From Candidatus Deferrimicrobium sp. (GTDB lineage: Bacteria; Zixibacteria; MSB-5A5; GN15; FEB-12): DNA of 58,553 nt. The notes under the pieces were generated by a model that saw only the letters and a program-made list of their open reading frames with translations, was not told the origin of the DNA and did not search any database. The position numbers and the translations under genes were made by a program. The stretch spans positions 1 to 58,553 of the forward strand of contig DATMWY010000204.1 in assembly GCA_035562415.1 (NCBI GenBank), read 5' to 3'. Of this stretch, positions 1,669-57,422 are shown in pieces; the stretch's first letter is position 1, and every line of letters begins with the position of its first letter.

Positions 1669-2979
1669 CTATTTCTCTTGATGCCCTGGCGGCAGCTGTG
1701 GCCAGCGTCCGGTTATCAGACGAGCGCCCCGATTGCGGGTGAAATAATTCCAGGCCCACTGGAAAAACACTAAGAGCCGATTCTCGAATTCTACGAGATA
1801 CATCAGATGGACGAAGAGCCACAACAGCCAGGCGGTGTAGCCGGAAACATGGAGCTTTCCGAAGAATCCGACCGCTGCGGCACGGCCGATAGTTGCCAGC
1901 GTGCCTTTGTCTCGGTAGTGAAAAGGCTTTGCTTGTTTGCCCTGCAGACGCCTGGCAATCAGCCGAGCAACATAGCGCCCCTGCTGCATAGCGACCGGCG
2001 CCAGCATAGGCAATGGCTGGGCGGCCCGGTGAGAACAATTCGCCAGGTCACCGATGACAAATACCTCCGGGTGCCCCGGCAGTGTCAGGTCGGGTTCGAC
2101 AATCACCCGTCCCTTGTCATCAAGAAGATCGGTATTCCCTTGGACCAGCAGGCGACCGAGCGGTGAAGCCGTGATTCCGGCAGCCCACAGGATGGTGCCC
2201 GCATCAATCAATTCCTGACGCCCTTCAGTCTCGAGTGTGACGCCATCAGGTTCAACTTGTAAAACTTTGGTGCGCGACCGCACCTCGATGCCCAATTTTT
2301 CCAGCGACTTTCGCGCCTCGTGCGACAATGACGGCGGAAATGCGGGCAGCACGCGATCAGCTCCTTCGACAAGGAGTATTCTCGCTTCCGCGGGATTGAT
2401 GGCCCGAAAGTCCCTGCGGAGCGTGTAATGAGCGATTTCCGCCAGAGCACCGGCAAGTTCCACGCCGGTGGCGCCGCTGCCGACAACGACAAAGGTCAGC
2501 CACGATCGACGCCTCTGAAGATCCGTTTCCATCTCCGCCGCTTCAAACGCCGTCAGGATTCGCCGCCGGATTTCCACGGCGTCCTCGACCGTCTTTAATC
2601 CCGGAGCGGTGTGGCGCCACTCTTCGTGTCCGAAGTAGTCGTTGTCGGCGCCGCTCGCCACGATCAAGCAGTCATAGCTAATCTCTTCCCGGTGATGCAG
2701 CGTCACTCGGCGCCGGGCAAGGTCGATATCAGTGACTTCCGCCAACAGGACGCGCGTGCGGCGATGCCGCTTGAGCACCGCTCGCAATGGGGATGCGATA
2801 TTACCGGGAGAGAGGCCGCCCGTGGCGACCTGATAGAGAAGCGGCTGAAAAAGATGGAAGTTTCTTTTGTCAATCAAGGTGACTTGGACCGGCGCGCGCC
2901 GCAGCGATCGAGCGGCATACAACCCGCCGAAGCCTCCGCCCACGATTACGACATGTGGTGTAGCTGGCTGCGAATTCAC
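1669..2979 (-). CDS. ndh: Type II NADH:quinone oxidoreductase (NDH-2)
   Basis: 436 aa. N-terminal HVVIVGGGFGGLYAA dinucleotide fold, FQPLLYQVATG, and a second GSGATGVELAG fold. Confidence 0.9.
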   Translation of the reverse strand: MNSQPATPHVVIVGGGFGGLYAARSLRRAPVQVTLIDKRNFHLFQPLLYQVATGGLSPGNIASPLRAVLKRHRRTRVLLAEVTDIDLARRRVTLHHREEISYDCLIVASGADNDYFGHEEWRHTAPGLKTVEDAVEIRRRILTAFEAAEMETDLQRRRSWLTFVVVGSGATGVELAGALAEIAHYTLRRDFRAINPAEARILLVEGADRVLPAFPPSLSHEARKSLEKLGIEVRSRTKVLQVEPDGVTLETEGRQELIDAGTILWAAGITASPLGRLLVQGNTDLLDDKGRVIVEPDLTLPGHPEVFVIGDLANCSHRAAQPLPMLAPVAMQQGRYVARLIARRLQGKQAKPFHYRDKGTLATIGRAAAVGFFGKLHVSGYTAWLLWLFVHLMYLVEFENRLLVFFQWAWNYFTRNRGARLITGRWPQLPPGHQEK

Positions 2980-3039: not shown

Positions 3040-5394
3040 CTATTTGACCAATTCGCGCAGCCGCTGCAAAACATCGACTCGGAAAGTAGCGCCCGCGGCC
3101 GGAGACCAGCCGACATCGTGTTCGAGCCGAGCCAGCGCGCGGTAGAAACCGTGCCGGGCGCTCAAACCGTTCAGTTCGGCGTCACGGGCGTTGTCCATGG
3201 CCTCAAGGAGAGCAGTCAGGCCGAGCCGCCCGGCCTCGTACTCCTCCTGTACGAGTTTCAGGTATCCAACGGCCAGCTCGGCGGATCGTAGTACTCTGGG
3301 CGTGCTGTGCAACTGCGCCAGGAGATCGTATATGTCGGCGCGAACGTTTTTGATCACGTCCAGTCGCACGGCATCCTGTTCGAATTCGATTCGGTTCAAT
3401 TCCGCTTTCAGCCGGGTACGCTCTCGCAGGCGGTCAGTGCCCAGAAAAAGCGGCCAGACCACTCCGCCCCACACCGACCACGTCGTGTGCTCTTCGGTGA
3501 ACACCGGCGGATCGTCAATCAATTCATCGTTGAAGTTGAGCGATCCGCGAATATCGAGCGTCGGCAGGAAGCGGGCCGTGTTCCTGCCGATCTGAAGCCG
3601 TTGAACGGAGACGTCGATATCGGCCGCCAGCACATCGGGGTGATTCTTGAGTGCCTCTTTGACAAGTGCTTCCTGGAGTCGGGCCCGGGAAGCTGCGCCG
3701 GCGGACATGGCGTCAAGCAGGCCATAGTCGTTCCAAAAGCGGGCTTCCGTGATGGCGTTGGTATCAAGCAGCAACGGGTCATCGGATGGCAGATTGAGCA
3801 GCGCGTTGAGCACAACTCCCGCAATTTGCACCTGTCCTTCGGCCGTCGCGATATTCGATATTGCCTGGTGTCGTTCATTCTGCCAGCGCAACAAATCAAT
3901 TTCGCCTTCTCGCTCATAAACCGTCCGGGCGCCGGCGGCCTCGAGGTTGTGCGCGACGAGTATCTGATACCGGCGATTCACTCCGAGGACTCCCCCGGCC
4001 TCAAGATGATCGAGATAGGCATTGGTCGTAGTGTTCTCCATATCCAGTCGGGATCGTTGAAGATTGGACACCTCGCGTTCTCGTTGCCGGCCGGCGATTT
4101 GGATGGTCCTGATTGCCGGGGCAGAAAAGAGGACCTGATGCGCTTCAAGCGAAGACGTAAGCGGGTTGCTCTGCAGCGTGCCGCGCGAATTGGCGACCGT
4201 GCGTTCGTCCAGATGCGCCGCCGACGCGCTGGCGCTTATCTGGGGTAGATATAAGGAATGGGTGCGCCGGTACTCCTGTGCGGACGCTTCAACGGCTTCC
4301 CGGCGGGCCAAGAGCCCCGGATTGAATGACAGTGCGCGGTCGACCGCCTGCGCGAGCGTTAACGGGGCGACCGATTCGGGCGGCGGGGCAGCAATGAGCA
4401 GCGCGTCATTGCGGATCTCCGCAGGGAGGCTGATGCGGCATTGGCGTGCCGTCAACTCGTGGATTGCAAGCATCTCCCCGTTTCGAGACTCAATCGGCAG
4501 ATCTGCCGGACGTTCTCCCCTGAAGATGCGCACTGCCTTGAGCGCGTTGAACCGCGAGTCCGAAACCGTCGAGAAAGCCGAGTTGCAGGCGAAGGCTCCT
4601 CTTTCGACTATGAGCAGCGGCTCAGCCGTGAAAACGGGTATCCCCTGGCGAGAGATTCTGGCCAGGAACTCCACCATCTTCGTTTCATTCATTCCCCACA
4701 GCGGCGGGAGGTACAGAGCGTCAACCTTCTCTGAAAGCTGGTTGTACGCTTTGAAAAACGCGTACGTGCCATAGTTGTCAACGCCACTGCCGGTGACGAC
4801 ATCAAATCCAAGACTATCGCCGAGAGAGTCAATAGCTGCAATTATGCCGGGGCTTTCGTCTCCGGACGGGAAGTAGAGCGCCCCCAATCGCTTGACAGTG
4901 ATGAGTTGAGTCAAGGCGCTCAGGTCTCTTTGGAGTCGCCCGGGTTTTGTCTGCACCGTCAGGTTGGGCGCTATCGGTTTGCCATCGGCGCCGATCAATC
5001 CCTGCGCCACCGGGTCGAATTGATGCATGGCCAGTATTGGCCGATCAAAACCGGCAGCCAGAAGGTCCTCCACCACCCATGGCCCGAGCGCCACGACCAT
5101 GTCGATGCTCTTGAGCGCTGTCAGCTCACCAGCCATGATGCGGCAGGAATCGCGCTTCCAGCCGGCTGAACGATAACCCTCCGGCACAAACGCGGCCTCG
5201 TACTCCTTCGGAAGCAGCAGACGCAACTGGCGGTCGAATTCAGCGCGCAGGATCGCATGAACCGGATACAGGCCACCCTCGAAATAACCGAGACGAAACT
5301 GCTTTGGCGGCTGGGCCAAAAGCGACGGCGTAATTGTCACGGGAGAGGCGGCAACGACGGCAACGGCAAGATAACGGACAATGGTTCTTAACAT
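3040..5394 (-). CDS. Exported fusion protein: ABC_sub_bind-like periplasmic binding domain (N-terminal ~330 aa) + TolC-family outer-membrane efflux channel (C-terminal ~440 aa)
   Basis: 784 aa with signal peptide MLRTIVRYLAVAVVAASPV. The N-terminal half resembles BMP/ABC_sub_bind binding proteins (DMVVALGPW, ILAMHQFDPV, NLTVQT, IPVFTAEP, RPADLPIE). The C-terminal half has two OEP-type repeats with long helical segments. Confidence 0.8.
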   Translation of the reverse strand: MLRTIVRYLAVAVVAASPVTITPSLLAQPPKQFRLGYFEGGLYPVHAILRAEFDRQLRLLLPKEYEAAFVPEGYRSAGWKRDSCRIMAGELTALKSIDMVVALGPWVVEDLLAAGFDRPILAMHQFDPVAQGLIGADGKPIAPNLTVQTKPGRLQRDLSALTQLITVKRLGALYFPSGDESPGIIAAIDSLGDSLGFDVVTGSGVDNYGTYAFFKAYNQLSEKVDALYLPPLWGMNETKMVEFLARISRQGIPVFTAEPLLIVERGAFACNSAFSTVSDSRFNALKAVRIFRGERPADLPIESRNGEMLAIHELTARQCRISLPAEIRNDALLIAAPPPESVAPLTLAQAVDRALSFNPGLLARREAVEASAQEYRRTHSLYLPQISASASAAHLDERTVANSRGTLQSNPLTSSLEAHQVLFSAPAIRTIQIAGRQREREVSNLQRSRLDMENTTTNAYLDHLEAGGVLGVNRRYQILVAHNLEAAGARTVYEREGEIDLLRWQNERHQAISNIATAEGQVQIAGVVLNALLNLPSDDPLLLDTNAITEARFWNDYGLLDAMSAGAASRARLQEALVKEALKNHPDVLAADIDVSVQRLQIGRNTARFLPTLDIRGSLNFNDELIDDPPVFTEEHTTWSVWGGVVWPLFLGTDRLRERTRLKAELNRIEFEQDAVRLDVIKNVRADIYDLLAQLHSTPRVLRSAELAVGYLKLVQEEYEAGRLGLTALLEAMDNARDAELNGLSARHGFYRALARLEHDVGWSPAAGATFRVDVLQRLRELVK

Positions 5395-7842: not shown

Positions 7843-8466
7843 CTACCAGGTGGCCTTGAACTCACCGGAGATCCTCTTGAAAATCTTGTAGCGGCGATCG
7901 ATTTCCTGCCAGTTGATATTCTTGAGGAACGCTTCGATGTACCTGGCTCGGGCCGGCCCCTGATCGTGGTAGTAGGCGTGCTCGTAGACATCGATGGCCA
8001 AAAGCGGAAACGTCCCCCAGACACCCCCCTGGTTATGCGCATCGCCGGTGAAATTGTGAATTGAGTCATCGAGCGGATCAAGCGCCGTCACGACCCAGCC
8101 GAGAGCGACCATTGCTGACGCCTTGAAATCTTCCACCCATTTGTCGTATGATCCATACGAACGCTCAAGATGCTTCAGGACCTCTCCGGTTGGGCGGCCG
8201 TCACCGCCGAGAATGTCCCAGAACAATTCGTGCAGAAGCTGGCCGGCGGCGTTGAACGTCTCATGGCGCTTAAGCCCGCCGAACTCGGAATAGTTGGCAT
8301 TGGCGGCGCTTCTGTCGACGGCCGCCAGCTTTTCGACAATCTCATTGCGCTTCTTGACGTAACCCGCGTAGTGGGTGTCATGGTGAAATTTATTGGTCTG
8401 CTCCGAGATCCCATCGAGTTTATCGTAGCGATAGGGGAGCGGTTTGACTTTGTATCGTTCAGCCAT
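7843..8466 (-). CDS. Fe/Mn-family superoxide dismutase
   Basis: MAERYKVKPLPYRYDKLDGISEQTNKFHHDTHY..AIDVYEHAYY. The internal ATG at 8466 has an AGGAGG upstream. The longer track ORF (to 8661) adds a non-protein-like extension. Confidence 0.92.
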   Translation of the reverse strand: MAERYKVKPLPYRYDKLDGISEQTNKFHHDTHYAGYVKKRNEIVEKLAAVDRSAANANYSEFGGLKRHETFNAAGQLLHELFWDILGGDGRPTGEVLKHLERSYGSYDKWVEDFKASAMVALGWVVTALDPLDDSIHNFTGDAHNQGGVWGTFPLLAIDVYEHAYYHDQGPARARYIEAFLKNINWQEIDRRYKIFKRISGEFKATW

Positions 8467-8602
8467 ATAGTAAAGACCTCCTGTCACAGTACATAGTGCC
8501 ACACGTGTGTGTCCGGCGTTATTGCCGGCGTGCCTAATGATTGGCGCTGGGAAGCACTGTGTCAAGCTGAAAATGGAGAAAGTCGAGCGAATCAGGCCAT
8601 TA

Positions 8603-10705
8603 TCACCGCTGAGGTGCCTGCTCGAGCATTGCTGCCGTCTGAGCCCAGAGCTGGCGGGCATACTGAGCCTTGAAGGGGTTGACCTTCACGGCGCACTCAT
8701 AGTATTGATTGGCCAGGACTTCCAGACTCCGGTCATGACCGAAGCCGGCCATCAGCTGCAAGGCCCGGCCACACTGAAGCTGAATATGAAAATCAGTGGG
8801 AAAACGATCGGCGAGACGAGCCAGATGCTGGTATGCCTCGCTATATTTTCCCTGCTGCCACACCAGGTCGGCCCGAAGAAGGCCGCCCGATTTCGACTCC
8901 GGATGCTGGCTGACAAACCTTTCAACAATTGTCAGGGCAGAGTCAAGCCGGCTCCGCTGAAACAAGTTTTGCGCCTGTTCGAACTCGCTTGGGCGATACG
9001 AACGCGCCTGCTCATTGGAGAACACATTACTGATATTGTAGAGCATTACTTCGACGTCGCGGATCCAGTACGCCGTCACGGGGACGAGGTCTTTCAAGAC
9101 CGGATAGGCGGCGATCGCCTCGGCCCAGTTGGATTCGTCGGCGGCAATATGAGTAATCGGTTGTCGGTCAAAGAGTGTCGAATCCAGATCGGCTACCTGA
9201 AAGAGATGAATAAACGATTTCAACGGCGTATTCAGCGTCAGGACCGGCCCATACGGCCCCGACACAACCGCTTCCGGTGACAGAATGGCCTGCAGATCCT
9301 GGTTGGCCTCCATGATATTGTAGTTGTCCGCGATAAGATGCTGCCGTCTGATTTGATAGCCATTGAATATGATTGAAAAGCACGCAAGCATCGCCGCACC
9401 AATCGTCAGCTTCCTTCGCGTGAGTGTGAAGTGGTATCGCCCGATGACGCGTCTGCTCACAAACGCCAGCACGATGCTTCCCGGCAGGGTAGCCCACGTC
9501 AGGGAGCGAATAGGACGCGGGAAGGTATTCCCAAAGAAGATATTGCCAATCGCATGAAACAAAAGGACCCAGAGCGCGAGCGTGAGGATCACCGTCGGTC
9601 CCTTGTTCAGTCTCACCGGAGTACTCACGCGCGCGTTCGACATCGTGTCGAACAGGCCAAAGCAGAACAGGATAATCGCAGCAATGACCAGCAAACCATA
9701 GCGCAAGGGCGAATAGTTGAGCGGCGCCAGTCCCAGAATGGCGGCGATGATAACGAACATCGAAAAGACAGTCGGCGGCGAAAGCTCGCCGATCTTCCTG
9801 CCGGAACTGAGAAATAGTACCAAAAGCAGCAGCCCGAAAAACCAAAACAGCAAAAGATCAATATCGAGGTAAAACAGGTGATTGGTGAACCCGTAGGAGA
9901 TGACATGCTCGACAAACGCCCACGGCGAGCGCAAACCGTCGGGGAATCCTCTCAGGCCATAGGATTGCTCGCCCACGTACGCAAATGCGGCGCGGACGTC
10001 ACGCCCGTAGAGCAAAACGGAGACAACGACGGCGGTCAGCAGGAAGGCAACTACGGCCGGTGCGGTCCGCCTGCGAACTTGACCTTGTCGAGAGAGCACT
10101 ATTGCCGCCACCAGCGCCGGCAGCAGCAGAGCGCCAAACAGCTTGCCGGTGAGCGTCGCCAGGGCCACCAGCGCGCCGGACAGAGCCACGCCCCACCAGC
10201 GATTTCCCCACCACGAATAGACGAAGACGACGAGCGCCGACAGAAATATGAGGCCGTTTTCAAGGTAGGACAGGCGCCCATAGGTAAACAATGTAACGTT
10301 CATGATGAAGCACACGGACGCCACGAGATATACCCAGGGCCGATGGTGGCGCGTCAGGGCGAGAAGGAAAAACAGCAATGCCGCCATCGATAGCAATACT
10401 CCCACGAGATTCGCGTCGCGCAATGACTCTCCCGCGACGGCGAACCAGACATAACTCACCAGCGAGACGAGTGAATGATGGTAGACCGTCCAGCGCGGAT
10501 AGTCATAAGGGTCGGGATCGTCAAAGAGAATCGCGTTTCTGGCGTGAAACACGTACTGGGCCGGGTCGGTCGATAGCGATTGGCCGAGACCCTCGTAGTA
10601 CATGGGCGGGTCGGACGTGAGATCGGATTGCCAGAAGATGAATCCCCCGACGATTATCAGCAGAGCGAAGAGATGGTACGGATACTGTCTGCGAGGCGGT
10701 CGCAT
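8603..10705 (-). CDS. Polytopic membrane protein, ArnT/PMT-like (GT-C) glycosyltransferase with C-terminal TPR-like domain
   Basis: 700 aa. Many hydrophobic helices in the first ~480 aa with GT39-like organisation. Soluble helical-repeat C-terminus. Function is inferred from architecture only. Confidence 0.55.
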   Translation of the reverse strand: MRPPRRQYPYHLFALLIIVGGFIFWQSDLTSDPPMYYEGLGQSLSTDPAQYVFHARNAILFDDPDPYDYPRWTVYHHSLVSLVSYVWFAVAGESLRDANLVGVLLSMAALLFFLLALTRHHRPWVYLVASVCFIMNVTLFTYGRLSYLENGLIFLSALVVFVYSWWGNRWWGVALSGALVALATLTGKLFGALLLPALVAAIVLSRQGQVRRRTAPAVVAFLLTAVVVSVLLYGRDVRAAFAYVGEQSYGLRGFPDGLRSPWAFVEHVISYGFTNHLFYLDIDLLLFWFFGLLLLVLFLSSGRKIGELSPPTVFSMFVIIAAILGLAPLNYSPLRYGLLVIAAIILFCFGLFDTMSNARVSTPVRLNKGPTVILTLALWVLLFHAIGNIFFGNTFPRPIRSLTWATLPGSIVLAFVSRRVIGRYHFTLTRRKLTIGAAMLACFSIIFNGYQIRRQHLIADNYNIMEANQDLQAILSPEAVVSGPYGPVLTLNTPLKSFIHLFQVADLDSTLFDRQPITHIAADESNWAEAIAAYPVLKDLVPVTAYWIRDVEVMLYNISNVFSNEQARSYRPSEFEQAQNLFQRSRLDSALTIVERFVSQHPESKSGGLLRADLVWQQGKYSEAYQHLARLADRFPTDFHIQLQCGRALQLMAGFGHDRSLEVLANQYYECAVKVNPFKAQYARQLWAQTAAMLEQAPQR

Positions 10706-10724
10706 TGGCTGACCGTTCTTGAGA

Positions 10725-11780
10725 CTATTCCACTTTGATGGAAACGCTGCCGCGAAGTTCGATCTCTCCGATGCGCTCCGCGAATATGCCGCGTCTCTCC
10801 GCTTCCCGCTCGAATGCGTCGGCCCGGCTCTTGGCGATGCAAATCAACAGACCGCCGGACGTCTGCGGGTCGTACATAACGTGAATCAGGTTTCGGTCGA
10901 TGGTGGCCGCCAGGCTCACTTCTTCCTGAACAAACTCCCGGTTGGCGGCGGTTCCGCCCGGTATCATGCCGGCCTCAGCCAGCTCAAGCACCTGCGGCAT
11001 GAGAGGCAAACTTTCGGCGAACATTCGAATAGTGACTTCCGAGGCCTGCGCCATTTCCAGCGCGTGTCCGAGCAAGCCGTAGCCGGTAATGTCGGTAGCG
11101 GCGTGGGCGTCAAACTCAATCATCAATTCGCACGCGTCTTTGTTAAGCTGAGCCATTTGCGCCGTCACCAGCGCGGTCAGTTCCGGGCTGACGGCGTTTC
11201 GCTTGATGCCCGTGGTAATGAGGCCGGTGCCAAGCGGCTTGGTCAAAAACAACCGATCGCCGGCCCGCGCGCCGGCGTTCGTGATTATCTTGTTCGGATC
11301 GATCAGGCCGGTTACGGCGATACCATACTTGAGTTCTTTATCCTTGATTGAGTGCCCGCCAACGACGACGGCTCCGGCTTCCTCGACCTTTTCCGTGCCT
11401 CCGCTTAGGATGCCGGTGAGGATTTCGATGGGCATGGTGTCGGACGGGAAACAGACAATGTTCATGGCCGTGAGCGGGCGCCCGCCCATGGCATAAACGT
11501 CCGAAAGTGCGTTGGCGGCGGCGATGCGGCCGAACTCGTACGGGTCATCCACGATGGGCGGGAAAAAATCCACTGTCTGCACCAGCGCCTGACGATCACT
11601 AATGCGAAAGACTCCGGCGTCATCGGCCGTGCCAAAGCCCACCAGCAGGTCCGGATGCGAGGACAGAGGAACACCTTGTAATGCTTGCACCAACAACTTT
11701 GGCGCCAGTTTCGACGCTCAACCGGCACAGCTTACTTCGGCGGTGAGCTTGATTTCCGTTTCTCGTCGGCGGTCAGTCAT
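10725..11780 (-). CDS. selD: Selenide, water dikinase (selenophosphate synthetase), selenocysteine-containing form
   Basis: The track ORF (323 aa from 11696) lacks the N-terminal active-site loop. Reading upstream in the same frame gives MTDRRRETEIKLTAEVSCAG-TGA-ASKLAPKLLVQAL. The TGA (11720-11718) aligns with Cys17 of E. coli SelD (GAGCGCKISPKVL). The rest is typical SelD (DDAGV, FGRIAAANALSDVYAMGG, GGHSI). Confidence 0.88.
11687..11720 (-). promoter_or_regulatory. Sec-UGA plus candidate bacterial SECIS hairpin
   Basis: Twelve nt after the UGA comes GCGCCAA-AGUUG-UUGGUGC: a 7-bp stem with one G-U pair and a 5-nt loop (11705-11687). Confidence 0.5.
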
Positions 11781-11923
11781 ATCATGACAATCTACACGAA
11801 GTGCCTGATATTGGCAACCGGTCTTAGATACGGCATTGACAGATTCGCTCGCGGCCGTCTCTACGATTATTTAGCACGAATAGGCAGGTTTCAAGAGAGA
11901 TGTGCCCTACGAAGAATTCACCA

Positions 11924-12601
11924 CTACAGTAAGTTGCCGTTCGATTCGATCACGCCGTCGCGAAGCTTGACGATTCGCTGCGCCTGGCGGGAGATTGTCT
12001 GATCATGAGTAATGATGATTACGGTCTTTCCGGAGCGCCACAGCTCGTGAAACATTTTGATTATTTCTCCGCCTGAGGCCGAATCGAGATTGCCGGTCGG
12101 TTCATCGGCAAGAATGACGTCCGGCTCGTTGGCCAGAGCGCGGGCGATGGCGACGCGCTGCATTTCTCCCCCTGACATCTCGGTCGGTTTGTTGGCGGCC
12201 TTGTCGACCAATCCAACTCGCGCCAAAAGCTCGGTGATGCGCTGCCGCCGTTTACGCGCGCCGACTCCCGCAAATAGCAGCGGCACCTCGACGTTTTCAA
12301 AGGCGGTGGCATACGGCAGCAGGTTGAACGCCTGAAAGACGAACCCGATTTTCTTGTTGCGGATGTCGGCCAACTGGTTGGAGCTCAGACTGCTCACCGG
12401 CTGCCCTTCGAGTTTGTACTCACCGAGGGTGGGCACGTCGAGACAGCCGATAATGTTCATGAGAGTCGACTTGCCGGAGCCGGACGGGCCGACCACGGCG
12501 ATCAATTCTCCGCGCCCGATGGTGAGGTCAATATCCCTGAGAGCCTGGAAGGTGACGGCGCCGGTGTTGTATGTCTTGGTGACACTGATGAGGTCTATCA
12601 T
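11924..12601 (-). CDS. ABC transporter ATP-binding protein, MacB/LolD family
   Basis: 225 aa. Walker [10 protein letters not shown], signature [14 protein letters not shown], Walker [12 protein letters not shown]. Confidence 0.93.
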
Positions 12602-12652
12602 TGCAGCTTACTCCATGCGACTGGTATCAAGATACGTTTTCATGGCGAGCTC

Positions 12653-13900
12653 TTACTCGTAACGTAACGACTCCACGGGATTCACGGAGGCCGCCTTCAG
12701 AGCCGGAAACAGCCCGGACAGAAGTCCCATGATGCTCAAGATGGCGACTACCATGACGCCGATTTCCACAGAGATAGTCGGGCGACCGAGAAACTCGAGC
12801 ACGTCGGATTCAATCGGCACCCGCTTGAACCCCTCGGTCAAAACATAGCTGACGGCCATGCCGCCCACTCCCCCGAGAAAGGTGATGAGCAACGACTCCA
12901 GAAGGAACTGCACGAGAATATACGACTTGCGGGCGCCGACGGCCATCTTGATGCCGATCTCGCGGGTGCGCTCTTTGATGGAGACATACATGATGTTGGC
13001 CACGCCGACGCCGGCGATGAGCAGCGTCAGCGCGCCGATAATGCCCAGAAATATCTGCAGGCCCAAAAGGATGTTGCTCATCTCACGCTGGTTTTCCACG
13101 ATGTCCCATACCCATAGTGCTTTGTCATCGGTCGGGTCGAACTTGAATTTCTCTCCGAGTACTTCAAACACGCGTCGCTCGACGGACTTCATATTATCCA
13201 GCGTCTGTGGTTTGTAGATGATCACCTGCAGATACCGATGGCCGAACATGGTCATGAACGTGGTCGCCGGAATCGAAAGCTTGTCTTCGTCCATGCCGCC
13301 ATAGGCGCCCATCTGCAGCTTGTGTTTCATCACGCCGATCACCGTAAACGGAACGGAGTTCACCATAATCTGCTTGCCGATCGCCTCCTCGTCGCCGAAA
13401 AGTCGCTTTTCAAGGGCATCTCCGAGAAAGGCGACGCGACGTTTCAACTGCATGTCGAGATCATTGATCATCCGCCCGCCGGACTCCGGAATGTGCGCGC
13501 GGATTTCTTCGAATTCCGGATAAATGCCGGTGACGTGCTCGCTGACCACCTTGTCCTTGTACTTGATGGTTTCGCCCCAGGTAGAGTATTCGCCGACGAC
13601 GTGTTTGAGCTCCGGCATCCGTTTTTTGAGGTACTCGACGTCATCTTCGGTAAATCGGATCGGTCGGCCCTTTCCCATGCCCTTATACGGCTTCGACGTC
13701 TGGTTTCCCCACAGGATGACGATTCCGTCGCCGATCCCCCGTTGATTCGTAGTCAGCTGCAGTCGCATCCCCTCGCCAAAAGCCAAAAGCAGCATGATCG
13801 ATATCGTTCCCCAGGCGAGCGCGATCAGCGTCAGCATGATACGCTTTCTCTGTTTGCGAAAGTCGCGGGCAAACACGCCGTAGATGATCGAGACTCTCAT
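12653..13900 (-). CDS. ABC transporter permease, MacB/FtsX type (periplasmic domain + FtsX C-terminal TMs)
   Basis: 415 aa. One N-terminal TM, a large extracytoplasmic domain, and a C-terminal FtsX-like helix bundle (ERTREIGIKMAVGAR). Confidence 0.9.
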   Translation of the reverse strand: MRVSIIYGVFARDFRKQRKRIMLTLIALAWGTISIMLLLAFGEGMRLQLTTNQRGIGDGIVILWGNQTSKPYKGMGKGRPIRFTEDDVEYLKKRMPELKHVVGEYSTWGETIKYKDKVVSEHVTGIYPEFEEIRAHIPESGGRMINDLDMQLKRRVAFLGDALEKRLFGDEEAIGKQIMVNSVPFTVIGVMKHKLQMGAYGGMDEDKLSIPATTFMTMFGHRYLQVIIYKPQTLDNMKSVERRVFEVLGEKFKFDPTDDKALWVWDIVENQREMSNILLGLQIFLGIIGALTLLIAGVGVANIMYVSIKERTREIGIKMAVGARKSYILVQFLLESLLITFLGGVGGMAVSYVLTEGFKRVPIESDVLEFLGRPTISVEIGVMVVAILSIMGLLSGLFPALKAASVNPVESLRYE

Positions 13901-13905
13901 CTTGT

Positions 13906-15147
13906 CTAAAATAGTTTCAGCGCCTGAACCGGCTGCAGGTTGGCGGCCCGACGCGCCGGGAAGATACCGGCCGCAAACCCGACTACCCCGAGGAGCAGCG
14001 TGGCCGCTATCGCGGCCGAGCCGTCAACCGCCGGCACGCCGATATATTCTTCGAGTTTGAACATCGGGAAGACCGTCACGACGCCGTAGGCAAACAGAAA
14101 TCCCAGCACGCCGCCCACGGCCGTGATGAGCAGCGTTTCAAAAACGAATTGTGACAGAATCATACTCTTGCGCGCGCCGAGGGCCATCTTGATGCCGATC
14201 TCCTTGGTTCGCTCTTCAAGGACGACGTTCATGATATTGGACACGCCGATCCCGCCGGTAATGAGGGTCGCCACACCGATTCCGACCAGAAACAACTGAA
14301 ACGCCAGAAAGAAGTTCTTGAGGAACACCAGACCCTCACTCACATCCCACACCGAGAGCGCTTCTTTGTCGGACGGATCAAAACGATAGCGCGCTCCGAG
14401 AATCTCCTGTATCTCGTTTCGACTTTGACGAATCGTGTGTTCCGGTCTGGCCTGCGCCACGAAGTCATTCAAATACAGGCGGGAGAACATAGCCTGAAAC
14501 GTCGACGACGGGATTATCCCTTTATTTTCATCTCGGCCGCTGTATGAGCTGTCCTGTTTTTTTGTCTTCAAGACGCCGATGACAGTGAACGGCACCTCAT
14601 TCACCAGCATGGTCTGACCCACCGCCGGCTCATCGCCGAACAGATCTTTTTTCAGCTTGTCGCCGATGAAAATGACGCGCCGCCGCTCGGCCATGTCGAG
14701 ATCATCGATGAAACGGGAACCCTCTTCCGGAATCAGATTGCGCATCTCGCCGAACTCCGGCCACACCCCCACGACATTCGTCAGCAGACTGTTTTTGCCG
14801 TATTTCAGGGTTACTCGCCAGCGGGAATACTCGGGCGAAATGCGCTCGATCGTGCGCGCCTTCGATTTTATGAGCGTCACGTCATCCTCGGTAAAACGCA
14901 CCGGCCGCCCTTTCGGCAGACCCTGATATTCCTTTGACGTAACTCCCGGCCAGAAGATGCCGATATTTTCGCCCAGCCCTTTTTGGGATTTCAATTGCGC
15001 CTCTTTTATCCCCTTGCCGAAAGCGAACAGCAGGACTATCGAGCATGTGCCCCAAAAGATACCGAACATGGTCAGAGCGCTGCGCAGCTTCTGGCGGCGC
15101 ATGTCGCTTAAGAACTGGCGAATGGACAATAGCGGGAGCATGGGCAA
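13906..15147 (-). CDS. ABC transporter permease, MacB/FtsX type (paralog of the downstream gene)
   Basis: 413 aa with the same architecture (ERTKEIGIKMALGAR). Only 5 nt separate it from the next gene. Confidence 0.9.
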   Translation of the reverse strand: MPMLPLLSIRQFLSDMRRQKLRSALTMFGIFWGTCSIVLLFAFGKGIKEAQLKSQKGLGENIGIFWPGVTSKEYQGLPKGRPVRFTEDDVTLIKSKARTIERISPEYSRWRVTLKYGKNSLLTNVVGVWPEFGEMRNLIPEEGSRFIDDLDMAERRRVIFIGDKLKKDLFGDEPAVGQTMLVNEVPFTVIGVLKTKKQDSSYSGRDENKGIIPSSTFQAMFSRLYLNDFVAQARPEHTIRQSRNEIQEILGARYRFDPSDKEALSVWDVSEGLVFLKNFFLAFQLFLVGIGVATLITGGIGVSNIMNVVLEERTKEIGIKMALGARKSMILSQFVFETLLITAVGGVLGFLFAYGVVTVFPMFKLEEYIGVPAVDGSAAIAATLLLGVVGFAAGIFPARRAANLQPVQALKLF

Positions 15148-15162
15148 GGTACCGTCAGCAAC

Positions 15163-16257
15163 TTACTCGCCGGTAATCTCCTTGGGCGGACGTTCGACCA
15201 GTAACTGCCCCTCTGAAAGCCCCTCAATGATCTCTATTTTGATGCCGTCTGAAAGGCCGGTCTTGACCTCGGCGGTCGTAATGATGCCGGCCGAGTCCTG
15301 CACTTCGACGGTGACTACCGAATCTTTCATTTTCACGAGGCGTTCCGGAACCAGGAGGATGTTTTCTTTCCTGGTAATGATGACGTCGGCATTGGCGCTG
15401 TAGCCGGCGCGGAGAAACTGCCGGCTCACTTCGCCGATCGCGATTTCGACTTCAAAGAGCGTCGATCCCTCTTCTTTGTGCGCCTTGGGTGAAATCTTTG
15501 ACAGGACGCCTGAAATTTTCTCGTTGGGCAGGGCGCCGATCTCTATCTCGACCGTCATTCCTTCCCGCAGCTTGCCGACGTCGATCTCGTCGACGTTCCC
15601 TTTGAATACGAGATCATCCATCTGGGCGAGCGTCATGAGCTCGGTTCCGGCCTGATACGAAGTGAGCGGCACCACCGGATCTCCTTCCTCGACCAAAAGC
15701 GACAGCACGGTTCCCTCGATGGGCGACTTGATGACATTGTCCACCATGCGATCGGCGATCTCGGTGTGTCCGGACTCGATGAGCGACAGCTTTTCCCGCA
15801 CGAGCTTGAGGCGCAGCTCACTCTCTTCACAGTCGGCGCGAGCTCGATCGTATTCCTGAAACGAGATCAACTGCTTGTCTTTGAGGCTGGTGGTGCGGTC
15901 GAATTCTCTTTTGGTATTGTCATACGTAACCTGGGCCAGTTCGACCTGCCGTTTGGCTTCCGCGAATTCCAACGGCGTCGGGTCCGGCGCGATGTCAAAC
16001 AGCGGCTGACCCGGTCGCACGACGTCGCCGACCTCGACATAGACCTTTCTGACGATCCCCGATATTTTCGATTTGACCGAGATTTCTCTTTTCGGATCGA
16101 TGCGGCCGACCGCGAGCGCTTTGTCGATAATCGTTCCCCTTTCGACGGGAACTGTTTTGAATCCGTTTTCCTTTTTGGCGGCGCCGTCAATGGCAAAAAA
16201 GAGCACGCCGCCGACCAGCGCGAGCGAGAATACGATCAGAAATATCTTCTTCAGCAT
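15163..16257 (-). CDS. Periplasmic adaptor (membrane fusion protein, HlyD/MacA family)
   Basis: 364 aa. N-terminal TM, lipoyl-like and coiled-coil hairpin segments, beta-barrel C-terminus. First gene of the MFP-permease-permease-ATPase operon. Confidence 0.9.
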   Translation of the reverse strand: MLKKIFLIVFSLALVGGVLFFAIDGAAKKENGFKTVPVERGTIIDKALAVGRIDPKREISVKSKISGIVRKVYVEVGDVVRPGQPLFDIAPDPTPLEFAEAKRQVELAQVTYDNTKREFDRTTSLKDKQLISFQEYDRARADCEESELRLKLVREKLSLIESGHTEIADRMVDNVIKSPIEGTVLSLLVEEGDPVVPLTSYQAGTELMTLAQMDDLVFKGNVDEIDVGKLREGMTVEIEIGALPNEKISGVLSKISPKAHKEEGSTLFEVEIAIGEVSRQFLRAGYSANADVIITRKENILLVPERLVKMKDSVVTVEVQDSAGIITTAEVKTGLSDGIKIEIIEGLSEGQLLVERPPKEITGE

Positions 16258-26232: not shown

Positions 26233-29200
26233 TCACTTGAGCAGCATCATTTTCCTTGTTGCGCTAAAGCCGCTCGCTTCCAGCCGATAGAGGTAGACAC
26301 CGGTGGAGACGGGTTGGCCCTGAGCGTCGGTGCCGTCCCAGGTGACGCTGTGCGCACCGGCCTCCCGGAACTCGTCCACCAGCGTAACCACGTGTTGTCC
26401 CAGAAGATTGAATACCTCCAACGCCACCCTTCCTGCATTGGGCAGGCTGAAGCTTATCTGCGTGGACGGGTTGAACGGATTCGGATAGCTCTGGTGCAAA
26501 GCAAACTCGGCCGGCAGCGCCGCCTCTTTCAATCCCTGATTGATCTGTGGCGCGATGGCGGTGTGACTCCGGTCGGACGCAAGTGCGTCCGTGATTTGCC
26601 ATTCACCTTTGAGGCGCACCAGCGGTGTCTTTCCCGCGGCGATGACGGCCTCACCTTCGAGGTCGACAATACCGACCCGAGCCGTGTTGCCGCTGGGACG
26701 GAAGAAGAACTCCATTGCGCCATCGGTCAGGCGGTCGGCGCCGGCTCCCGCTACGCCGGACAGATCCATCTGAATACCGCGTATATCTACCGGCGTTTCA
26801 ATGGAGATTACGGTTTCTCCATCGTCGTACGTGGAATTGAGGTTGAGGCCACCGTAAGTTTTCGCAGCACCCGTCGTTTGCGTCTCACCACAGTTATACG
26901 GCAGCTCGCCGCCCTGGAAGATAAAGGCCACGAGGTACGTCAGGTCGGCGATGTCAACACTGCCGGAACCGTTGACGTCGGCTTCTTCAATACACGGCGG
27001 TGCATCCCCGCCCTGGAAGAGATAGGCGACGAGGTAGGTCAGGTCAGCGACATTGACTTGATCGTTAGAATCGCCATCGACGTTGCCGCGCATGTCCTGG
27101 CAGCAGCCGGCAGCGATATCAGTAAAGGTGATTGTCGGAATGTCAGCCGCCAGGAAGTCAATGTTTCGGATAAAGTCTATCGGTACAGTGGCGTCTTCCG
27201 GTCTTATGTAAACTGCATCTCCAACGACCGGTATATCCCCATTCTCTACACGGAGAAACATCGAGTCCGTAAAGGAAAATGTGCAACCGATCTCCACTAC
27301 AAAAAGACTATCTATATACGCGTGCCAATCTCCCCACGAGTTACGTATCATCCGAAATGCCGGGCCAGTATCCCCCGTTATTCTGGCAACCAATGAATCA
27401 CCGCTATACACCAAGATCTCCTGAGTGGTGCCACCGACAGGGGAAAAGTCAGCGGAAAACTCCCATCCTGCACCTGACTTGTAACCATTAACAATTCCCA
27501 AGACTTGATCCGCGGCGATATTCGATTGCCCCACTGCCGTCACCGTTAGGGAAGCACCATCAGGAAGAGTTCCCGCCGGGTCCAACTCGAGCCACTTGGC
27601 GTCGAAGCGGCTCGCAGCACCCAGATTGATTGAGACGCCATCATCACCGCTACCTAAACGCGAGACAATCAAGTTACCACCCGATGTGTCCAGGCACGCC
27701 GTTCCAACGGAAGTGTGCTCCAGACCGAAAACACGCACCGTATCCGGTGGTGGAGCGGGGCTCGGATTGCACGGGCCGGGGACCGGATAGCCGCCGTAGG
27801 GGGCAAATACCCCGATTCCGTAGACGAAGTAGTCTTGATAGAGCTGAAGGTCAGCGGCATCAACCACACCGTCGCCATTGAGATCACAGCTATTCAGCGG
27901 GATCGGCGCCGGGCCACAACCATTGATGAAGGCAGCAAGGTAGGCCAGATCAGCGGCAGTCAGACCAACAGAGTCATTGTTGGCATCGCCATCTGCATAG
28001 CAGCCACAGCACAGTTCGACATACAATTCAATGTAGTCTACTTCGGTTTCGTCCGAGACAAACATGTCGAGATTTCCGTCCTGAAGAACGGCCAGAATGT
28101 TCGTGGGCAGCCAGGAGCTGGGCGGCAGGCTCGCAAGGTTCAGCGTGACCGTCATCTCGTCGCCTGAGTTCCACGGAGCCGGTCCTTCGTCTGGGTCATA
28201 ATTCTCCAAATCATTCAGAAGTATCGACCAGATTCTTCCGCCCTGGCTCCAGTCGCCGAGTCCCAGAAAATCTGTATAGGGCTGACCCGGGTTTGCGCGG
28301 AGATGGAGTGTAAGTAAGGCTTGCACAACCTCGCATTTTTCATGATCCCAACATCCTTCAAAGGTGTGGCCAAACCAGTCGTCAGAGGCCGGCTGGTCGA
28401 AGTTTGTAATAACCCCCGCTCCAAAAGAATTGGCGGTGGTAACCAGCCAATTATAGAGATCCGGACTCATGTAAGAAGGCTCCGGCACGTTGAAATTGTC
28501 GTTTGTCCCGTGAATACAGGTTGTTTCGGTTTGATACCAAGTCGTAGTGGCATGATGATCGCAAGAGTCGTTTCCGAAGTCTAAGCCTACGCGATTGTCA
28601 CCCCACTGCAGATTGTTGAGCGTATAGAAAACAGATAACGGAAAGGTCTGTACCCATGGTGCCCCCCCCGAAGGTATGACGTCCTCCTCAACCGTGTACG
28701 AACCCGGTGTAAGTCCGGCGAAAAGGTAATTCCCCGAGCCGTTCGTAAGCTGGATGTTTTGCCATTCCACTGTACCATTGGGCAAGAACTTTGTAAGTTC
28801 GATCGGAAAATTCGCCAAACCTGTTTCTCCGAGTCCCGGCTCCCAAAGAGAGTTGCCGTTCATGTCATGGAACTTCCTGCCGGCGATGCTGATAGGGGGG
28901 ACCTTACAGAGTTCGACTGCAATCAGGAAATTGACGTCAACCCCCCAGTTGTTTAACATCCCATCCCAAACGTTGCCAGATGTGTAGACACTTGAGCGAT
29001 TGGTGCCAATAGATCCATCATCGGAGAGTATACTTTCATACTCACCCGAACTGCCGCTGGTCGAGATGGCCACATGGAAATCACTCGTGAAAGTAAGCCC
29101 ATCCGAACTGAAATCGACCGTCGTGACTGACGGATAAGCCGAGTAAGTGCCGGGTGGAAGAATCTTCGTCGAAAGGTCCAAGTCAGGGAGTCCCCCCAAA

Positions 29201-29592
29201 TCAGACTGAGTTCTCAGGAAGATGGTATCATTTCCAAAAGTGCCGTTGCCGGGGTCATACACGGCAAAGGCCACTGTTTTCAGAGTTTCGGGAGCACCAC
29301 TGACGCTGAAACGCATGGCGTAGGCCTCGTCGCCATACACGGGGTCGGGCAGTCGCCAGTAATAATACGGCGTGATGGCATAGTTCTGCCAGTAGCAATC
29401 TGCTGACGTACTCTTTTCGAGGGGGAGGCCCGGTCGCTCCAGCCCGGCCTCAACTTCTTTCATGGGTGTCAGCTGTGCTGAGCGATTCTTGCCGGATAGG
29501 GGAAGGCTGACATCTTCTCCAGCAAAGACGCTTGCAGCCATCATCATAAGCGCGATGGCCAAAAGCCTTGTGATCAGATTATGGCGTCTCAT
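26233..29592 (-). CDS. Large secreted protein: SdrD/Cna-B-like fold, dockerin-like Ca-binding repeats, T9SS/FlgD-like C-terminal sorting domain
   Basis: 1119 aa from the ATG at 29592 (AAGGAG upstream; signal peptide MRRHNLITRLLAIALMMMAASVFA). Contains DLNGDGVVDAADL, CCQDMRGNVDGDSNDQVNVADLTYLVAYLFQGG, and C-terminal YPNPFNPSTQISFSLP..GVYLYRL. Confidence 0.85.
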   Translation of the reverse strand: MRRHNLITRLLAIALMMMAASVFAGEDVSLPLSGKNRSAQLTPMKEVEAGLERPGLPLEKSTSADCYWQNYAITPYYYWRLPDPVYGDEAYAMRFSVSGAPETLKTVAFAVYDPGNGTFGNDTIFLRTQSDLGGLPDLDLSTKILPPGTYSAYPSVTTVDFSSDGLTFTSDFHVAISTSGSSGEYESILSDDGSIGTNRSSVYTSGNVWDGMLNNWGVDVNFLIAVELCKVPPISIAGRKFHDMNGNSLWEPGLGETGLANFPIELTKFLPNGTVEWQNIQLTNGSGNYLFAGLTPGSYTVEEDVIPSGGAPWVQTFPLSVFYTLNNLQWGDNRVGLDFGNDSCDHHATTTWYQTETTCIHGTNDNFNVPEPSYMSPDLYNWLVTTANSFGAGVITNFDQPASDDWFGHTFEGCWDHEKCEVVQALLTLHLRANPGQPYTDFLGLGDWSQGGRIWSILLNDLENYDPDEGPAPWNSGDEMTVTLNLASLPPSSWLPTNILAVLQDGNLDMFVSDETEVDYIELYVELCCGCYADGDANNDSVGLTAADLAYLAAFINGCGPAPIPLNSCDLNGDGVVDAADLQLYQDYFVYGIGVFAPYGGYPVPGPCNPSPAPPPDTVRVFGLEHTSVGTACLDTSGGNLIVSRLGSGDDGVSINLGAASRFDAKWLELDPAGTLPDGASLTVTAVGQSNIAADQVLGIVNGYKSGAGWEFSADFSPVGGTTQEILVYSGDSLVARITGDTGPAFRMIRNSWGDWHAYIDSLFVVEIGCTFSFTDSMFLRVENGDIPVVGDAVYIRPEDATVPIDFIRNIDFLAADIPTITFTDIAAGCCQDMRGNVDGDSNDQVNVADLTYLVAYLFQGGDAPPCIEEADVNGSGSVDIADLTYLVAFIFQGGELPYNCGETQTTGAAKTYGGLNLNSTYDDGETVISIETPVDIRGIQMDLSGVAGAGADRLTDGAMEFFFRPSGNTARVGIVDLEGEAVIAAGKTPLVRLKGEWQITDALASDRSHTAIAPQINQGLKEAALPAEFALHQSYPNPFNPSTQISFSLPNAGRVALEVFNLLGQHVVTLVDEFREAGAHSVTWDGTDAQGQPVSTGVYLYRLEASGFSATRKMMLLK

Positions 29593-29883
29593 AGCTCTGC
29601 TCCTTGCAGTTGTGGTTACAGTGTTTTGACCTATCCAAGTCATGTTTGTCGTTGACATTGCGGTGCGGTTCATGGTTTGTCTCCATTTCCAAGTTTTCTT
29701 TAGGGTTCTTGTTAGAGTTTCAGCGTGGCCGTGCGGCCGTGATCGTCAGATTAGCGCCATCCTGTCTCTCCTCCCGCAGACTACTGGTTTCCGCATTGTG
29801 TCTCTCCTGTTTAAGGTTCGTTAATCCAGTTTCTCCATTAGTCTGCTTTGTCGCGCCATGGTTCGCAGAAAATCCGGCTTATG

Positions 29884-34055: not shown

Positions 34056-34580
34056 ATCGTTCAATTCTCCAGCAGTCACCGATGCCCATCAGGGTGTTGA
34101 TTGGAATATGCCTTCGGCAAAGTTGCTGCAACCACAAAGCCGAACATAAGAATAAGCGCTAAGCCTGCATAACGCAAGAGGCACGGAGTCATGGCCTCTC
34201 CGGGGTAATGTGATCAAAAGTGTGTAAGACAATATAAACCGTTACCCGCAGGAGAAGACTCAGGAGCAAGTAATGGGTAGACAGCCGAGCGTGAGTCAGA
34301 GTTGTTGCAGGTGGAAGTCAAGCTTCGTGATTACTCCCGGACGGCAGTTATCGACTCCGGAATAACAGCGGACTATCCTGAGAATAAACTGGGCCAAAGG
34401 GCTGACATGCTCACGAGTCATCCGAGATGTCCCGAATTGCTCAAGCAGGAAACTCGAAATCTTTTCCCGAACGGTTTGACAGCCGCTCAGTAATGAGGTT
34501 AAAGAGGGGACTGTATTCCGAATCCGCGGAACAGCTAAGGTCTTTTCATCGGCCCTGCTGCCCGTATCCCTAATGTCACA

Positions 34581-34654
34581 TAGCGGTGCAGGGACTCGAA
34601 CCCCGGACACGCGGATTATGATTCCGCTGCTCTAACCAGCTGAGCTACACCGCC
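34581..34654 (-). tRNA. tRNA with CAU anticodon (elongator Met, or Ile2 if lysidine-modified)
   Basis: GGCGGTG-TA-GCTC-AGCTGGTTA-GAGC-A-GCGGA-ATCATAA-TCCGC-GTGTC-CGGGG-TTCGAGT-CCCTG-CACCGCT-A. 74 nt, cloverleaf folds by hand, no encoded CCA. Confidence 0.9.
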
Positions 34655-34684
34655 ATGATCTGTTGTAAAGGCACGCGCCAATTG

Positions 34685-44947: not shown

Positions 44948-45265
44948 TCAGTTGGTGTCGTCGTCAAAGGGAGAGATTTTCTCGGGGATTCGGACGATGA
45001 GATCAGACCGTACTTTGCACTGGCAGGCCAACCGGGATGTCTCGCTGAGAGTCTCGACTTCGTCCAGCATATCCATTTCATCTTCGGTCATGCCGTTCAG
45101 AGCATCGAAACCGTCTTCAACGATCACATGACAGGTCGAACAGGCACAATTGCCGCCGCAGTTGTGGTCGATACGGATATTGTTGTCAAGGGCGGCATCG
45201 AGCACTGATGTCCCTTCGCGGACTTCGATTTCCACGTCGGCGGGCAGAAATCGCACTTTTGGCAT
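44948..45265 (-). CDS. 2Fe-2S ferredoxin, adrenodoxin/Fdx (ISC) type
   Basis: MPKVRFLP..CGGNCACSTCH..LACQ four-Cys pattern. Confidence 0.88.
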   Translation of the reverse strand: MPKVRFLPADVEIEVREGTSVLDAALDNNIRIDHNCGGNCACSTCHVIVEDGFDALNGMTEDEMDMLDEVETLSETSRLACQCKVRSDLIVRIPEKISPFDDDTN

Positions 45266-45348
45266 CAACAGAGCCTCGTCAACTGACATGCCGCATGCTC
45301 CCCAGTGTCTCCGAGAGTGGTTCGCCTGGCCATGTCACTGGCTTCGCA

Positions 45349-56966: not shown

Positions 56967-57422
56967 ATGGCACCGAAGCGTGCACAATATCTGACATACG
57001 GCGAGGACGACATCTGTGCCGAAACCAGAAAATTCATCGAAGGCGCCGGCGTGTTGCTGGACGTGCGTGACATGAGCAAACACCCCCTGAGCGAGTACGA
57101 GTTGTCGACCCTGATCGGCCACATGGAAATTACGCATTTCCTGAACCCGCTTTCCGACTCGTACGAGAAATTTCGCCTGGACAAGCATCTGCCCAGCCGG
57201 GAAGACATCATTCGGCTCATGGCCAAAGATCATACGTTGATCCGTCGGCCGATTATCCGCGCGGCTCGCCTGATCACCGTTGGCTGCGACAAGCGCAAGA
57301 TCTCCGAAATGCTGCAAATAGGTCCGGATGGTCAGAAGCTTGAAGACAACAGCGCCAGCAATGTCAGCAACCGGTCCAGAAAGCCGGCTCACCACCGGCA
57401 GTCGGCCCAGGCAGGCAGATAA
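56967..57422 (+). CDS. ArsC/Spx/MgsR-family (glutaredoxin-fold) protein
   Basis: AGGAGG upstream. YLTYGEDDICAETRKFIEGAGV..LIRRPII..VGCD. Confidence 0.75.
   Translation: MAPKRAQYLTYGEDDICAETRKFIEGAGVLLDVRDMSKHPLSEYELSTLIGHMEITHFLNPLSDSYEKFRLDKHLPSREDIIRLMAKDHTLIRRPIIRAARLITVGCDKRKISEMLQIGPDGQKLEDNSASNVSNRSRKPAHHRQSAQAGR

Follow-up and report, generated by a model that had tools for sequence, protein, structure and literature searches.

A selD gene with an in-frame UGA and a putative SECIS hairpin in a Zixibacteria-like bacterium

Does the TGA near the beginning of a selD gene end a short reading frame, or is it read as selenocysteine (Sec)? This question is raised by contig DATMWY010000204.1 of Candidatus Deferrimicrobium sp., of which we analysed positions 1 to 58,553, called the window here. 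Its minus strand carries a gene for a predicted selenide, water dikinase (SelD) at 10725-11780, and the first part of this gene is missing from the mechanical list of open reading frames (ORFs). Sec-containing SelD proteins have been known for decades. We consider it very probable that the gene in the window is of this type, with a catalytic N-terminal loop that would contain Sec21, encoded by the UGA at 11720-11718, and with a selenocysteine insertion sequence (SECIS) downstream of it. The argument refers to the following features.

10725 to 11780, minus strand: full-length selD coding sequence, 351 codons including the predicted Sec21, with the TAG stop at 10727-10725
11778 to 11780, minus strand: ATG, the true start codon, conserved in relatives, with conservation collapsing just upstream
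11721 to 11777, minus strand: N-terminal peptide TDRRRETEIKLTAEVSCAG before Sec21, including Cys18, under purifying selection
11718 to 11720, minus strand: in-frame UGA, predicted from the structure alignment and the Sec/Cys pair to be read as selenocysteine, residue 21
11709 to 11711, minus strand: codon of Lys24, which corresponds to the catalytic Lys20 of Escherichia coli SelD in the alignment to 3u0o
11694 to 11696, minus strand: TTG start of the mechanical ORF call, an artefact, inside the apical loop of the SECIS
11687 to 11705, minus strand: putative bacterial SECIS hairpin with the 5' arm at 11705-11699 (GCGCCAA), the apical loop at 11698-11694 (AGUUG) and the 3' arm at 11693-11687 (UUGGUGC)

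Reading frame and the residue at the UGA

The strand was read over 10500-12000 and translated over 10725-11780. The frame opens with the ATG at 11780-11778, contains the TGA at 11720-11718 as its sole internal stop and closes with the TAG at 10727-10725. Its translation is MTDRRRETEIKLTAEVSCAG-UGA-ASKLAPKLLVQAL; with the stop shown as an asterisk, the same translation reads MTDRRRETEIKLTAEVSCAG, the asterisk, and then ASKLAPKLLVQALQG... A first-pass annotation, made from the sequence alone, had described this in-frame UGA with coordinates and sequences that are all correct, and had rightly noted that the ORF track starts selD only at 11696. There the mechanical list opens a protein of 323 residues with a TTG, by which the first 28 codons are cut off. 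Close relatives mostly have a start codon at the position homologous to the ATG, and the peptide then runs M-[ED]-D-[KR]-R-[KR]-E.

When C stands in for U, the protein of 351 residues scores 390.5 bits against TIGR00476, the selD equivalog model (cut-off 125), and 344.8 bits against NF002098 (cut-off 299). The SelD profile match runs from residue 11 on and hence covers part of the protein upstream of the UGA. The best matches among solved structures are the SelD proteins of E. coli (3u0o, E = 1e-70) and Aquifex aeolicus (2yye), and the body of the protein aligns to solved SelD structures as far as residue 341. The domains PF00586 (AIRS) and PF02769 (AIRS_C) are precomputed for P0001, a database protein 100% identical to the part downstream of the UGA, as well as for all listed homologs. 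These matches support the prediction that 10725-11780 encodes a complete selenide, water dikinase, which would serve selenophosphate synthesis.

The first-pass annotation had placed the UGA opposite Cys17 of E. coli SelD. The phmmer alignment to 3u0o gives the same result, with residue 21 at Cys17 and Lys24 at Lys20, and the UGA also falls opposite the Cys that was introduced in place of Sec in the Aquifex protein (2yye). The loop AG-U21-AS-K24 matches AG-C17-GC-K20 in 3u0o and SG-C-AA-K in 2yye, and Lys24 is invariant in 57 of 57 distinct Sec-type sequences.

For the search of relatives one genome per species was scanned, which yielded 80 related loci (L001-L080). The closest, at 56-76% identity, are labelled Zixibacteria or belong to unclassified or 'Ignavibacteriales' metagenome-assembled genomes; this kinship fits a Zixibacteria-like host from the Fibrobacteres-Chlorobi-Bacteroidetes (FCB) group. 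In most of the 80 loci the tblastn match spans query residues 1-351 and thus crosses the stop. The codon at the Sec position is TGA in 61 of the 80 loci and TGC or TGT in 10, with flanks conserved on both sides; for the remaining 9 loci, the DNA examined did not reveal an N-terminal loop. The full-length database homologs P0044, P0083 and P0108 have Cys at this position, and the few database entries of 351 residues are Cys-type, reading RLTAEVSCAGCAAKLA. Judged by these codons, the family presents a textbook Sec/Cys pair.

The same loci bear on the explanation that the gene is a pseudogene, or that its TGA stands for a TGC or TGT misread in sequencing or assembly. TGA is one base away from either codon, and a metagenome assembly is evidently the source of the sequence. 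However, the TGA recurs in 61 independently assembled related loci, among them that of a cultured isolate, Sinobaca qinghaiensis DSM 17008 (L048). The frame shows no further disruptions, the whole ORF scores as a full-length SelD, and P0001 stems from an independent assembly, so that an error or a decayed gene is scarcely credible.

Could the TGA be a true stop, with a separate ORF of 20 codons upstream and an N-terminally truncated SelD translated from an internal start, at the TTG at 11696 or later? The mechanical call begins at this very TTG, the database entries of the relatives are almost all 301-327 residues long, some of them carrying the SelD label, and the window contains no Sec machinery. 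The peptide before the UGA speaks a different language, however. Over the 14 codons preceding the UGA, 37 relatives showed 210 synonymous versus 78 nonsynonymous codon differences from the window, compared with 9 synonymous versus 494 nonsynonymous in the control, the 14 in-frame codons upstream of the ATG. Within the peptide, codons for Leu, Thr, Val and Gly differ synonymously only, and KLTAEVSCAG is nearly invariant within the close clade. The synonymous excess shows that purifying selection acts on the N-terminal peptide and that it is translated in frame with the enzyme body, with which it is contiguous in the Cys-type homologs.

A truncated protein would, moreover, be devoid of the loop with Sec or Cys and Lys that aligns to Cys17 and Lys20 of E. 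coli. The internal starts of the relatives, just past the UGA, are an unconserved assortment (LVEALE..., MAPKVL..., LAPKLL..., MGFGTADD...), and the TTG of the window sits within the covarying hairpin described below. The first-pass annotation had named close homologs lacking the N-terminal loop as the finding that would speak against it; the DNA of these same relatives encodes the loop, and the N-terminal truncation of their database entries is a gene-calling artefact. It is well documented that SelD is often misannotated for exactly this reason (PMC13326102, PMC4561486). Taken together, we regard translation from an internal start as exceedingly unlikely.

The Sec-type loop has one further conserved residue. 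Cys18 (codon 11727-11729, minus strand) lies three residues before Sec21 and gives rise to a C-x-x-U motif, SCAG-U-ASK. Of 61 Sec-type sequences 45 contain CxxU, and of the 9 Cys-type sequences in the strict set 8 contain C-x-x-C. The second Cys of the E. coli type, at +2, gives way to Ser or Ala in these sequences and to Ser in the window. Cys18 is a possible selenenylsulfide partner of Sec21. One may speculate that in the Zixibacteria-like clade a CxxU selenenylsulfide would provide a redox-gated or self-protecting loop, mechanistically unlike the E. coli C-x-C and the Aquifex S-G-U, or that SelD would be the only selenoprotein by which this lineage maintains the Sec trait; we think such an extension unlikely.

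The hairpin downstream of the UGA

Twelve nucleotides past the UGA begins a hairpin with a stem of 7 bp and a loop of 5 nucleotides, GCGCCAA-AGUUG-UUGGUGC. The first-pass annotation had described this structure and its position accurately, and the hairpin is also present in the minimum free energy (MFE) fold. For the consensus of the bacterial SECIS (bSECIS) we used the bSECISearch model as quoted in PMC13188914. In this model the apical loop has 3-9 nucleotides and the upper stem 4-16 bp, a G stands within the first two loop positions and is usually followed by G or U, the UGA is 16-37 nucleotides away from the apical loop, and the MFE is at most -7.5 kcal/mol (PMC13188914). The window hairpin agrees with the model in each respect. 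Loop (AGUUG, 5 nucleotides) and stem (7 bp) lie within these ranges, as they do in most relatives, which have a 3-nucleotide loop and a stem of 7-8 bp. The G occupies position 2 of the loop A-G-U-U-G and is followed by U, and the spacer of 12 nucleotides together with the 7 nucleotides of the 5' arm gives a distance of 19. The isolated hairpin (23 nucleotides) has an energy of -9.6 kcal/mol (z = -2.69; 4 of 200 shuffles were as good). Such single-sequence energetics are modest and only suggestive evidence.

The comparison among relatives is more informative, since hairpins of differing sequence were found at the same offset. Covariation was evaluated on 41 distinct Sec-type sequences, aligned without gaps, with the helix formed by columns 16-23 and 27-34. 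In this helix 86.3% of the cells are paired, compared with at most 61% in any slid register, and 6 of the 8 pairs have changes on both sides, as expected for compensatory substitutions. The covariation score of 0.387 exceeds both the slid registers (at most 0.160) and the shuffled alignments (0.166 ± 0.018, 0 of 500 as high), although the sequences are related by descent, so that the shuffle counts overstate the significance and are not probabilities. The slid-register and synonymous-site tests are less affected by kinship and are the more robust evidence.

Synonymous sites were examined because the RNA of the hairpin is also coding. The Leu codon of the 3' arm is UUG in 32 of 32 sequences with A as its partner and CUG in 9 of 9 sequences with G. 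For the next Ala codon, a partner C goes together with GCG (9 sequences), GCC (3) and GCT (2), and a partner G with GCC (14) and GCT (1), GCG being absent (0). When the window segment was recoded synonymously 5000 times, 7 of 7 pairs were kept in 100 recodings (2%), and 54 (1.1%) were equally stable locally. All 41 of the 41 sequences share the G of the loop (alignment column 24). This G forms the last position of a Lys codon, which reads AAG in 31 of 31 cases, whereas the catalytic Lys, four codons upstream, is encoded by AAA in 39 and by AAG in 18 sequences.

Of the 7 core pairs, 5.98 are kept on average at Sec-type loci and 3.0 at Cys-type loci, which suggests that the Cys-type homologs do not maintain the hairpin and that its maintenance is relaxed there. 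The comparative evidence for the hairpin goes far beyond chance. Hence, agreement with the published consensus as well as compensatory and synonymous covariation support the earlier SECIS reading, in which the hairpin at 11705-11687 is a bacterial SECIS and a putative binding element for SelB.

Starting from established bacterial Sec decoding, we infer that SelB would bind here and that Sec would indeed be inserted. SelB would bring Sec-tRNA(Sec) into the A site, competing there with release factor 2, and translation would then proceed via Lys24 into the AIRS/AIRS_C enzyme body.

Three Gemmatimonadaceae loci (L074, L078 and L079) have a Cys-type (TGC) selD with a tRNA-Sec still directly downstream. 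The fold of the SECIS region is stable in L074 (-10.4 kcal/mol) and L078 (-10.3 kcal/mol) and has not been kept in L079 (-6.4 kcal/mol), and just 2-5 of the 7 core pairs remain in these loci. They look like recent Sec-to-Cys conversions with a remnant SECIS, a situation that has been described previously (PMC1794560).

Genetic code and decoding machinery

If the UGA is translated, it might still be decoded outside the SelB pathway, either by an alternative code in which UGA means Trp or Gly, or by near-cognate read-through with insertion of Cys or Trp. Bacteria are known to read through UGA in this near-cognate way at a low level, which would suit a lineage for which no Sec machinery was observed either in the window or around selD in close relatives (±3 to ±10 kb). 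An alternative genetic code is nevertheless excluded. TGA ends 15 of the 50 ORFs of the window, including genes with complete profiles such as lipoyl synthase and enoyl-CoA hydratase, in which the family-profile match reaches the end of the profile just before the stop. TGA thus acts as a normal stop in the window; the code is the standard one and the TGA in selD is recoded rather than reassigned. Furthermore, the codon aligns with Cys or Sec and not with Trp or Gly. Near-cognate read-through leaves the covarying hairpin with its invariant loop G unexplained, whereas synonymous covariation together with this G is a specific signature of SelB-dependent recoding, and the relaxed hairpin in Cys-type genes points in the same direction. 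Decoding outside the Sec pathway is therefore very unlikely.

Some observations tell against a Sec-type gene with a SECIS. A tRNA-Sec was not found in the 58.5-kb window with Rfam and ARAGORN, for which the only RNA match of any family was one tRNA-Met at 34580-34655. NCBIfam searches of 40 of the larger ORFs of the window gave no selA, selB, ybbB/selU, yedE/F or other selenium genes. Likewise, selA, selB and tRNA-Sec were absent within ±3 kb of selD in 38 loci of close relatives, where these stretches contain no tRNA of any kind, and a Zixibacteria genome of 3.18 Mb and a scaffold of 423 kb had no Sec machinery within ±10 kb of the gene. The scan for ORF extensions by TGA read-through gave no second selenoprotein gene in the window: its 124 raw candidates were essentially all off-frame noise, except for selD. 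As to the hairpin, the 56-nucleotide region around it folds no better than shuffles (z = -0.35), the A and the G that open the loop (N1 and N2) are unpaired, unlike in most relatives, and one of the stem pairs is a G-U.

In 15 loci of more distant relatives, mostly Gemmatimonadaceae but also Clostridia and Bacillota, selD has a tRNA-Sec as its neighbour, and a SelB-like GTPase motif was found near selD in 5 loci. Where linkage exists, the distant relatives show the expected association of selD with the machinery. For the organism of the window it is reasonable to expect, with the first-pass annotation, that selA, selB and selC lie elsewhere in the genome, and the same can be said of other genes truncated at a UGA.

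Two further ORFs of the window were considered as selenoprotein genes and rejected. The 2Fe-2S ferredoxin of 113 residues at 44948-45289 (minus strand; CGGNCACSTCH...C) ends at a genuine TGA stop, as its in-frame continuation is not protein-like, and the ArsC/Spx-like ORF at 56967 has an ordinary Cys. About 300 nucleotides between the ferredoxin stop at 44948 and the next ORF are unannotated.

Known SelD proteins and neighbouring genes

The SelD proteins of Aquifex aeolicus (Sec13; PDB 2yye and 2zod are the Sec-to-Cys mutant) and of Acetomicrobium mobile (in BSepDB) belong to the same family, TIGR00476. They share with the window a Sec in a Gly-rich loop, xxG-U-A-[AS]-K, with Lys three residues further on, and in the known examples, as here, the Sec-type gene is truncated by standard gene callers. 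The A. mobile protein is the worked example of BSepDB (...TSGUAAKLGP...), and its canonical SECIS has the same architecture but lies about one codon closer to the UGA. The SelD element of the BSepDB example and that of the window both lie inside the coding sequence at nearly the same offset and have a small apical loop, which in the BSepDB example begins with G. On the other hand, the window protein is at most about 45% identical to the solved structures, its clade has the Cys at -3 (CxxU), which the Aquifex (SSGU) and Acetomicrobium (TSGU) proteins lack, and the host, a Zixibacteria-like uncultured bacterium, is a different one.

E. coli SelD (3u0o) has the same fold and family, aligned over residues 7-341, with Cys17 and Lys20 in the places of U21 and K24. 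Its residue is Cys (UGC) instead of Sec, it has a second Cys at +2 (C-G-C-K; Ser in the window) and it needs no SECIS. The elements of E. coli fdhF and Moorella thermoacetica fdhA resemble that of the window in being a stem-loop inside the ORF, right 3' of the Sec-UGA, with a G and then a U in the loop. They differ in having no primary-sequence similarity to the window hairpin, which is a simple 7-bp stem. The fdhF element has a bulged U, for which no counterpart is seen in the window hairpin.

Among bacterial selenoproteins, no two families are more widespread than SelD and FdhA (PMC1794560), and 19% of the prokaryotic SelD genes encode Sec, always at the same position (PMC4561486). The gene described here is thus a solid but routine example of a long-known phenomenon and conceptually nothing new. 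In the literature we found no paper that links Zixibacteria with Sec, the single co-mention being incidental, and the phylum Zixibacteria is not mentioned in the main text of the BSepDB paper or of a 2026 review. This lack of a previous link is no more than a footnote on taxonomy. A single feature is mildly unusual, namely the conserved Cys at -3 (C-A-G-U) combined with Ser or Ala where E. coli has Cys19.

For annotation, selD should be given as a selenoprotein of 351 residues (transl_except 11720-11718) and not as a fragment of at most 323 residues without the catalytic loop. Dozens of Zixibacteria-like database entries, 301-327 residues long, need to be corrected likewise. Moreover, the gene marks the organism as a probable user of selenium and Sec, which gives a motive to look for other UGA-interrupted genes.

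On the downstream side, 19 nucleotides after selD, lies a gene for a multi-pass membrane protein of 700 residues with a C-terminal TPR-like region (8603-10705, minus strand), which has no NCBIfam match. In a relative whose SelD is 74% identical (L082), a TPR protein of 703 residues (10989-13100) is likewise found 19 nucleotides downstream of selD, which suggests a conserved selD-linked gene. Another gene (7843-8661, minus strand) encodes an Fe/Mn superoxide dismutase, matched over residues 72-259, with an N-terminal extension of about 70 residues that is possibly a signal or anchor sequence or the result of a miscalled start.

Selenium-related names also come up at 1669-2979 (minus strand), a pyridine nucleotide-disulfide oxidoreductase of 436 residues without an in-frame TGA. 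Its best matches stay far below the cut-off, with 104 bits versus 310 for TIGR03169 ('Nterm_to_SelD') and, for the N-terminus only, 53 versus 525 for a selenoprotein subtype of type III sulfide:quinone reductase (SQR). The product is probably an NDH-2/SQR-like flavoprotein, for which the selenium-related names are weak matches only.

The ORF at 3040-5394 (minus strand) encodes 784 residues with a TolC-type outer-membrane channel (residues 344-762). Its N-terminal residues 98-331 are weakly similar to an ATP-binding cassette (ABC) substrate-binding protein, an unusual fusion. A MacA/MacB-type efflux set at 11924-16257 is located on the opposite side of selD, several kb away. Finally, a protein of 1146 residues encoded at 26233-29673 (minus strand) has a C-terminal T9SS type A sorting domain, which we take to fit a Zixibacteria-like host of the FCB group.

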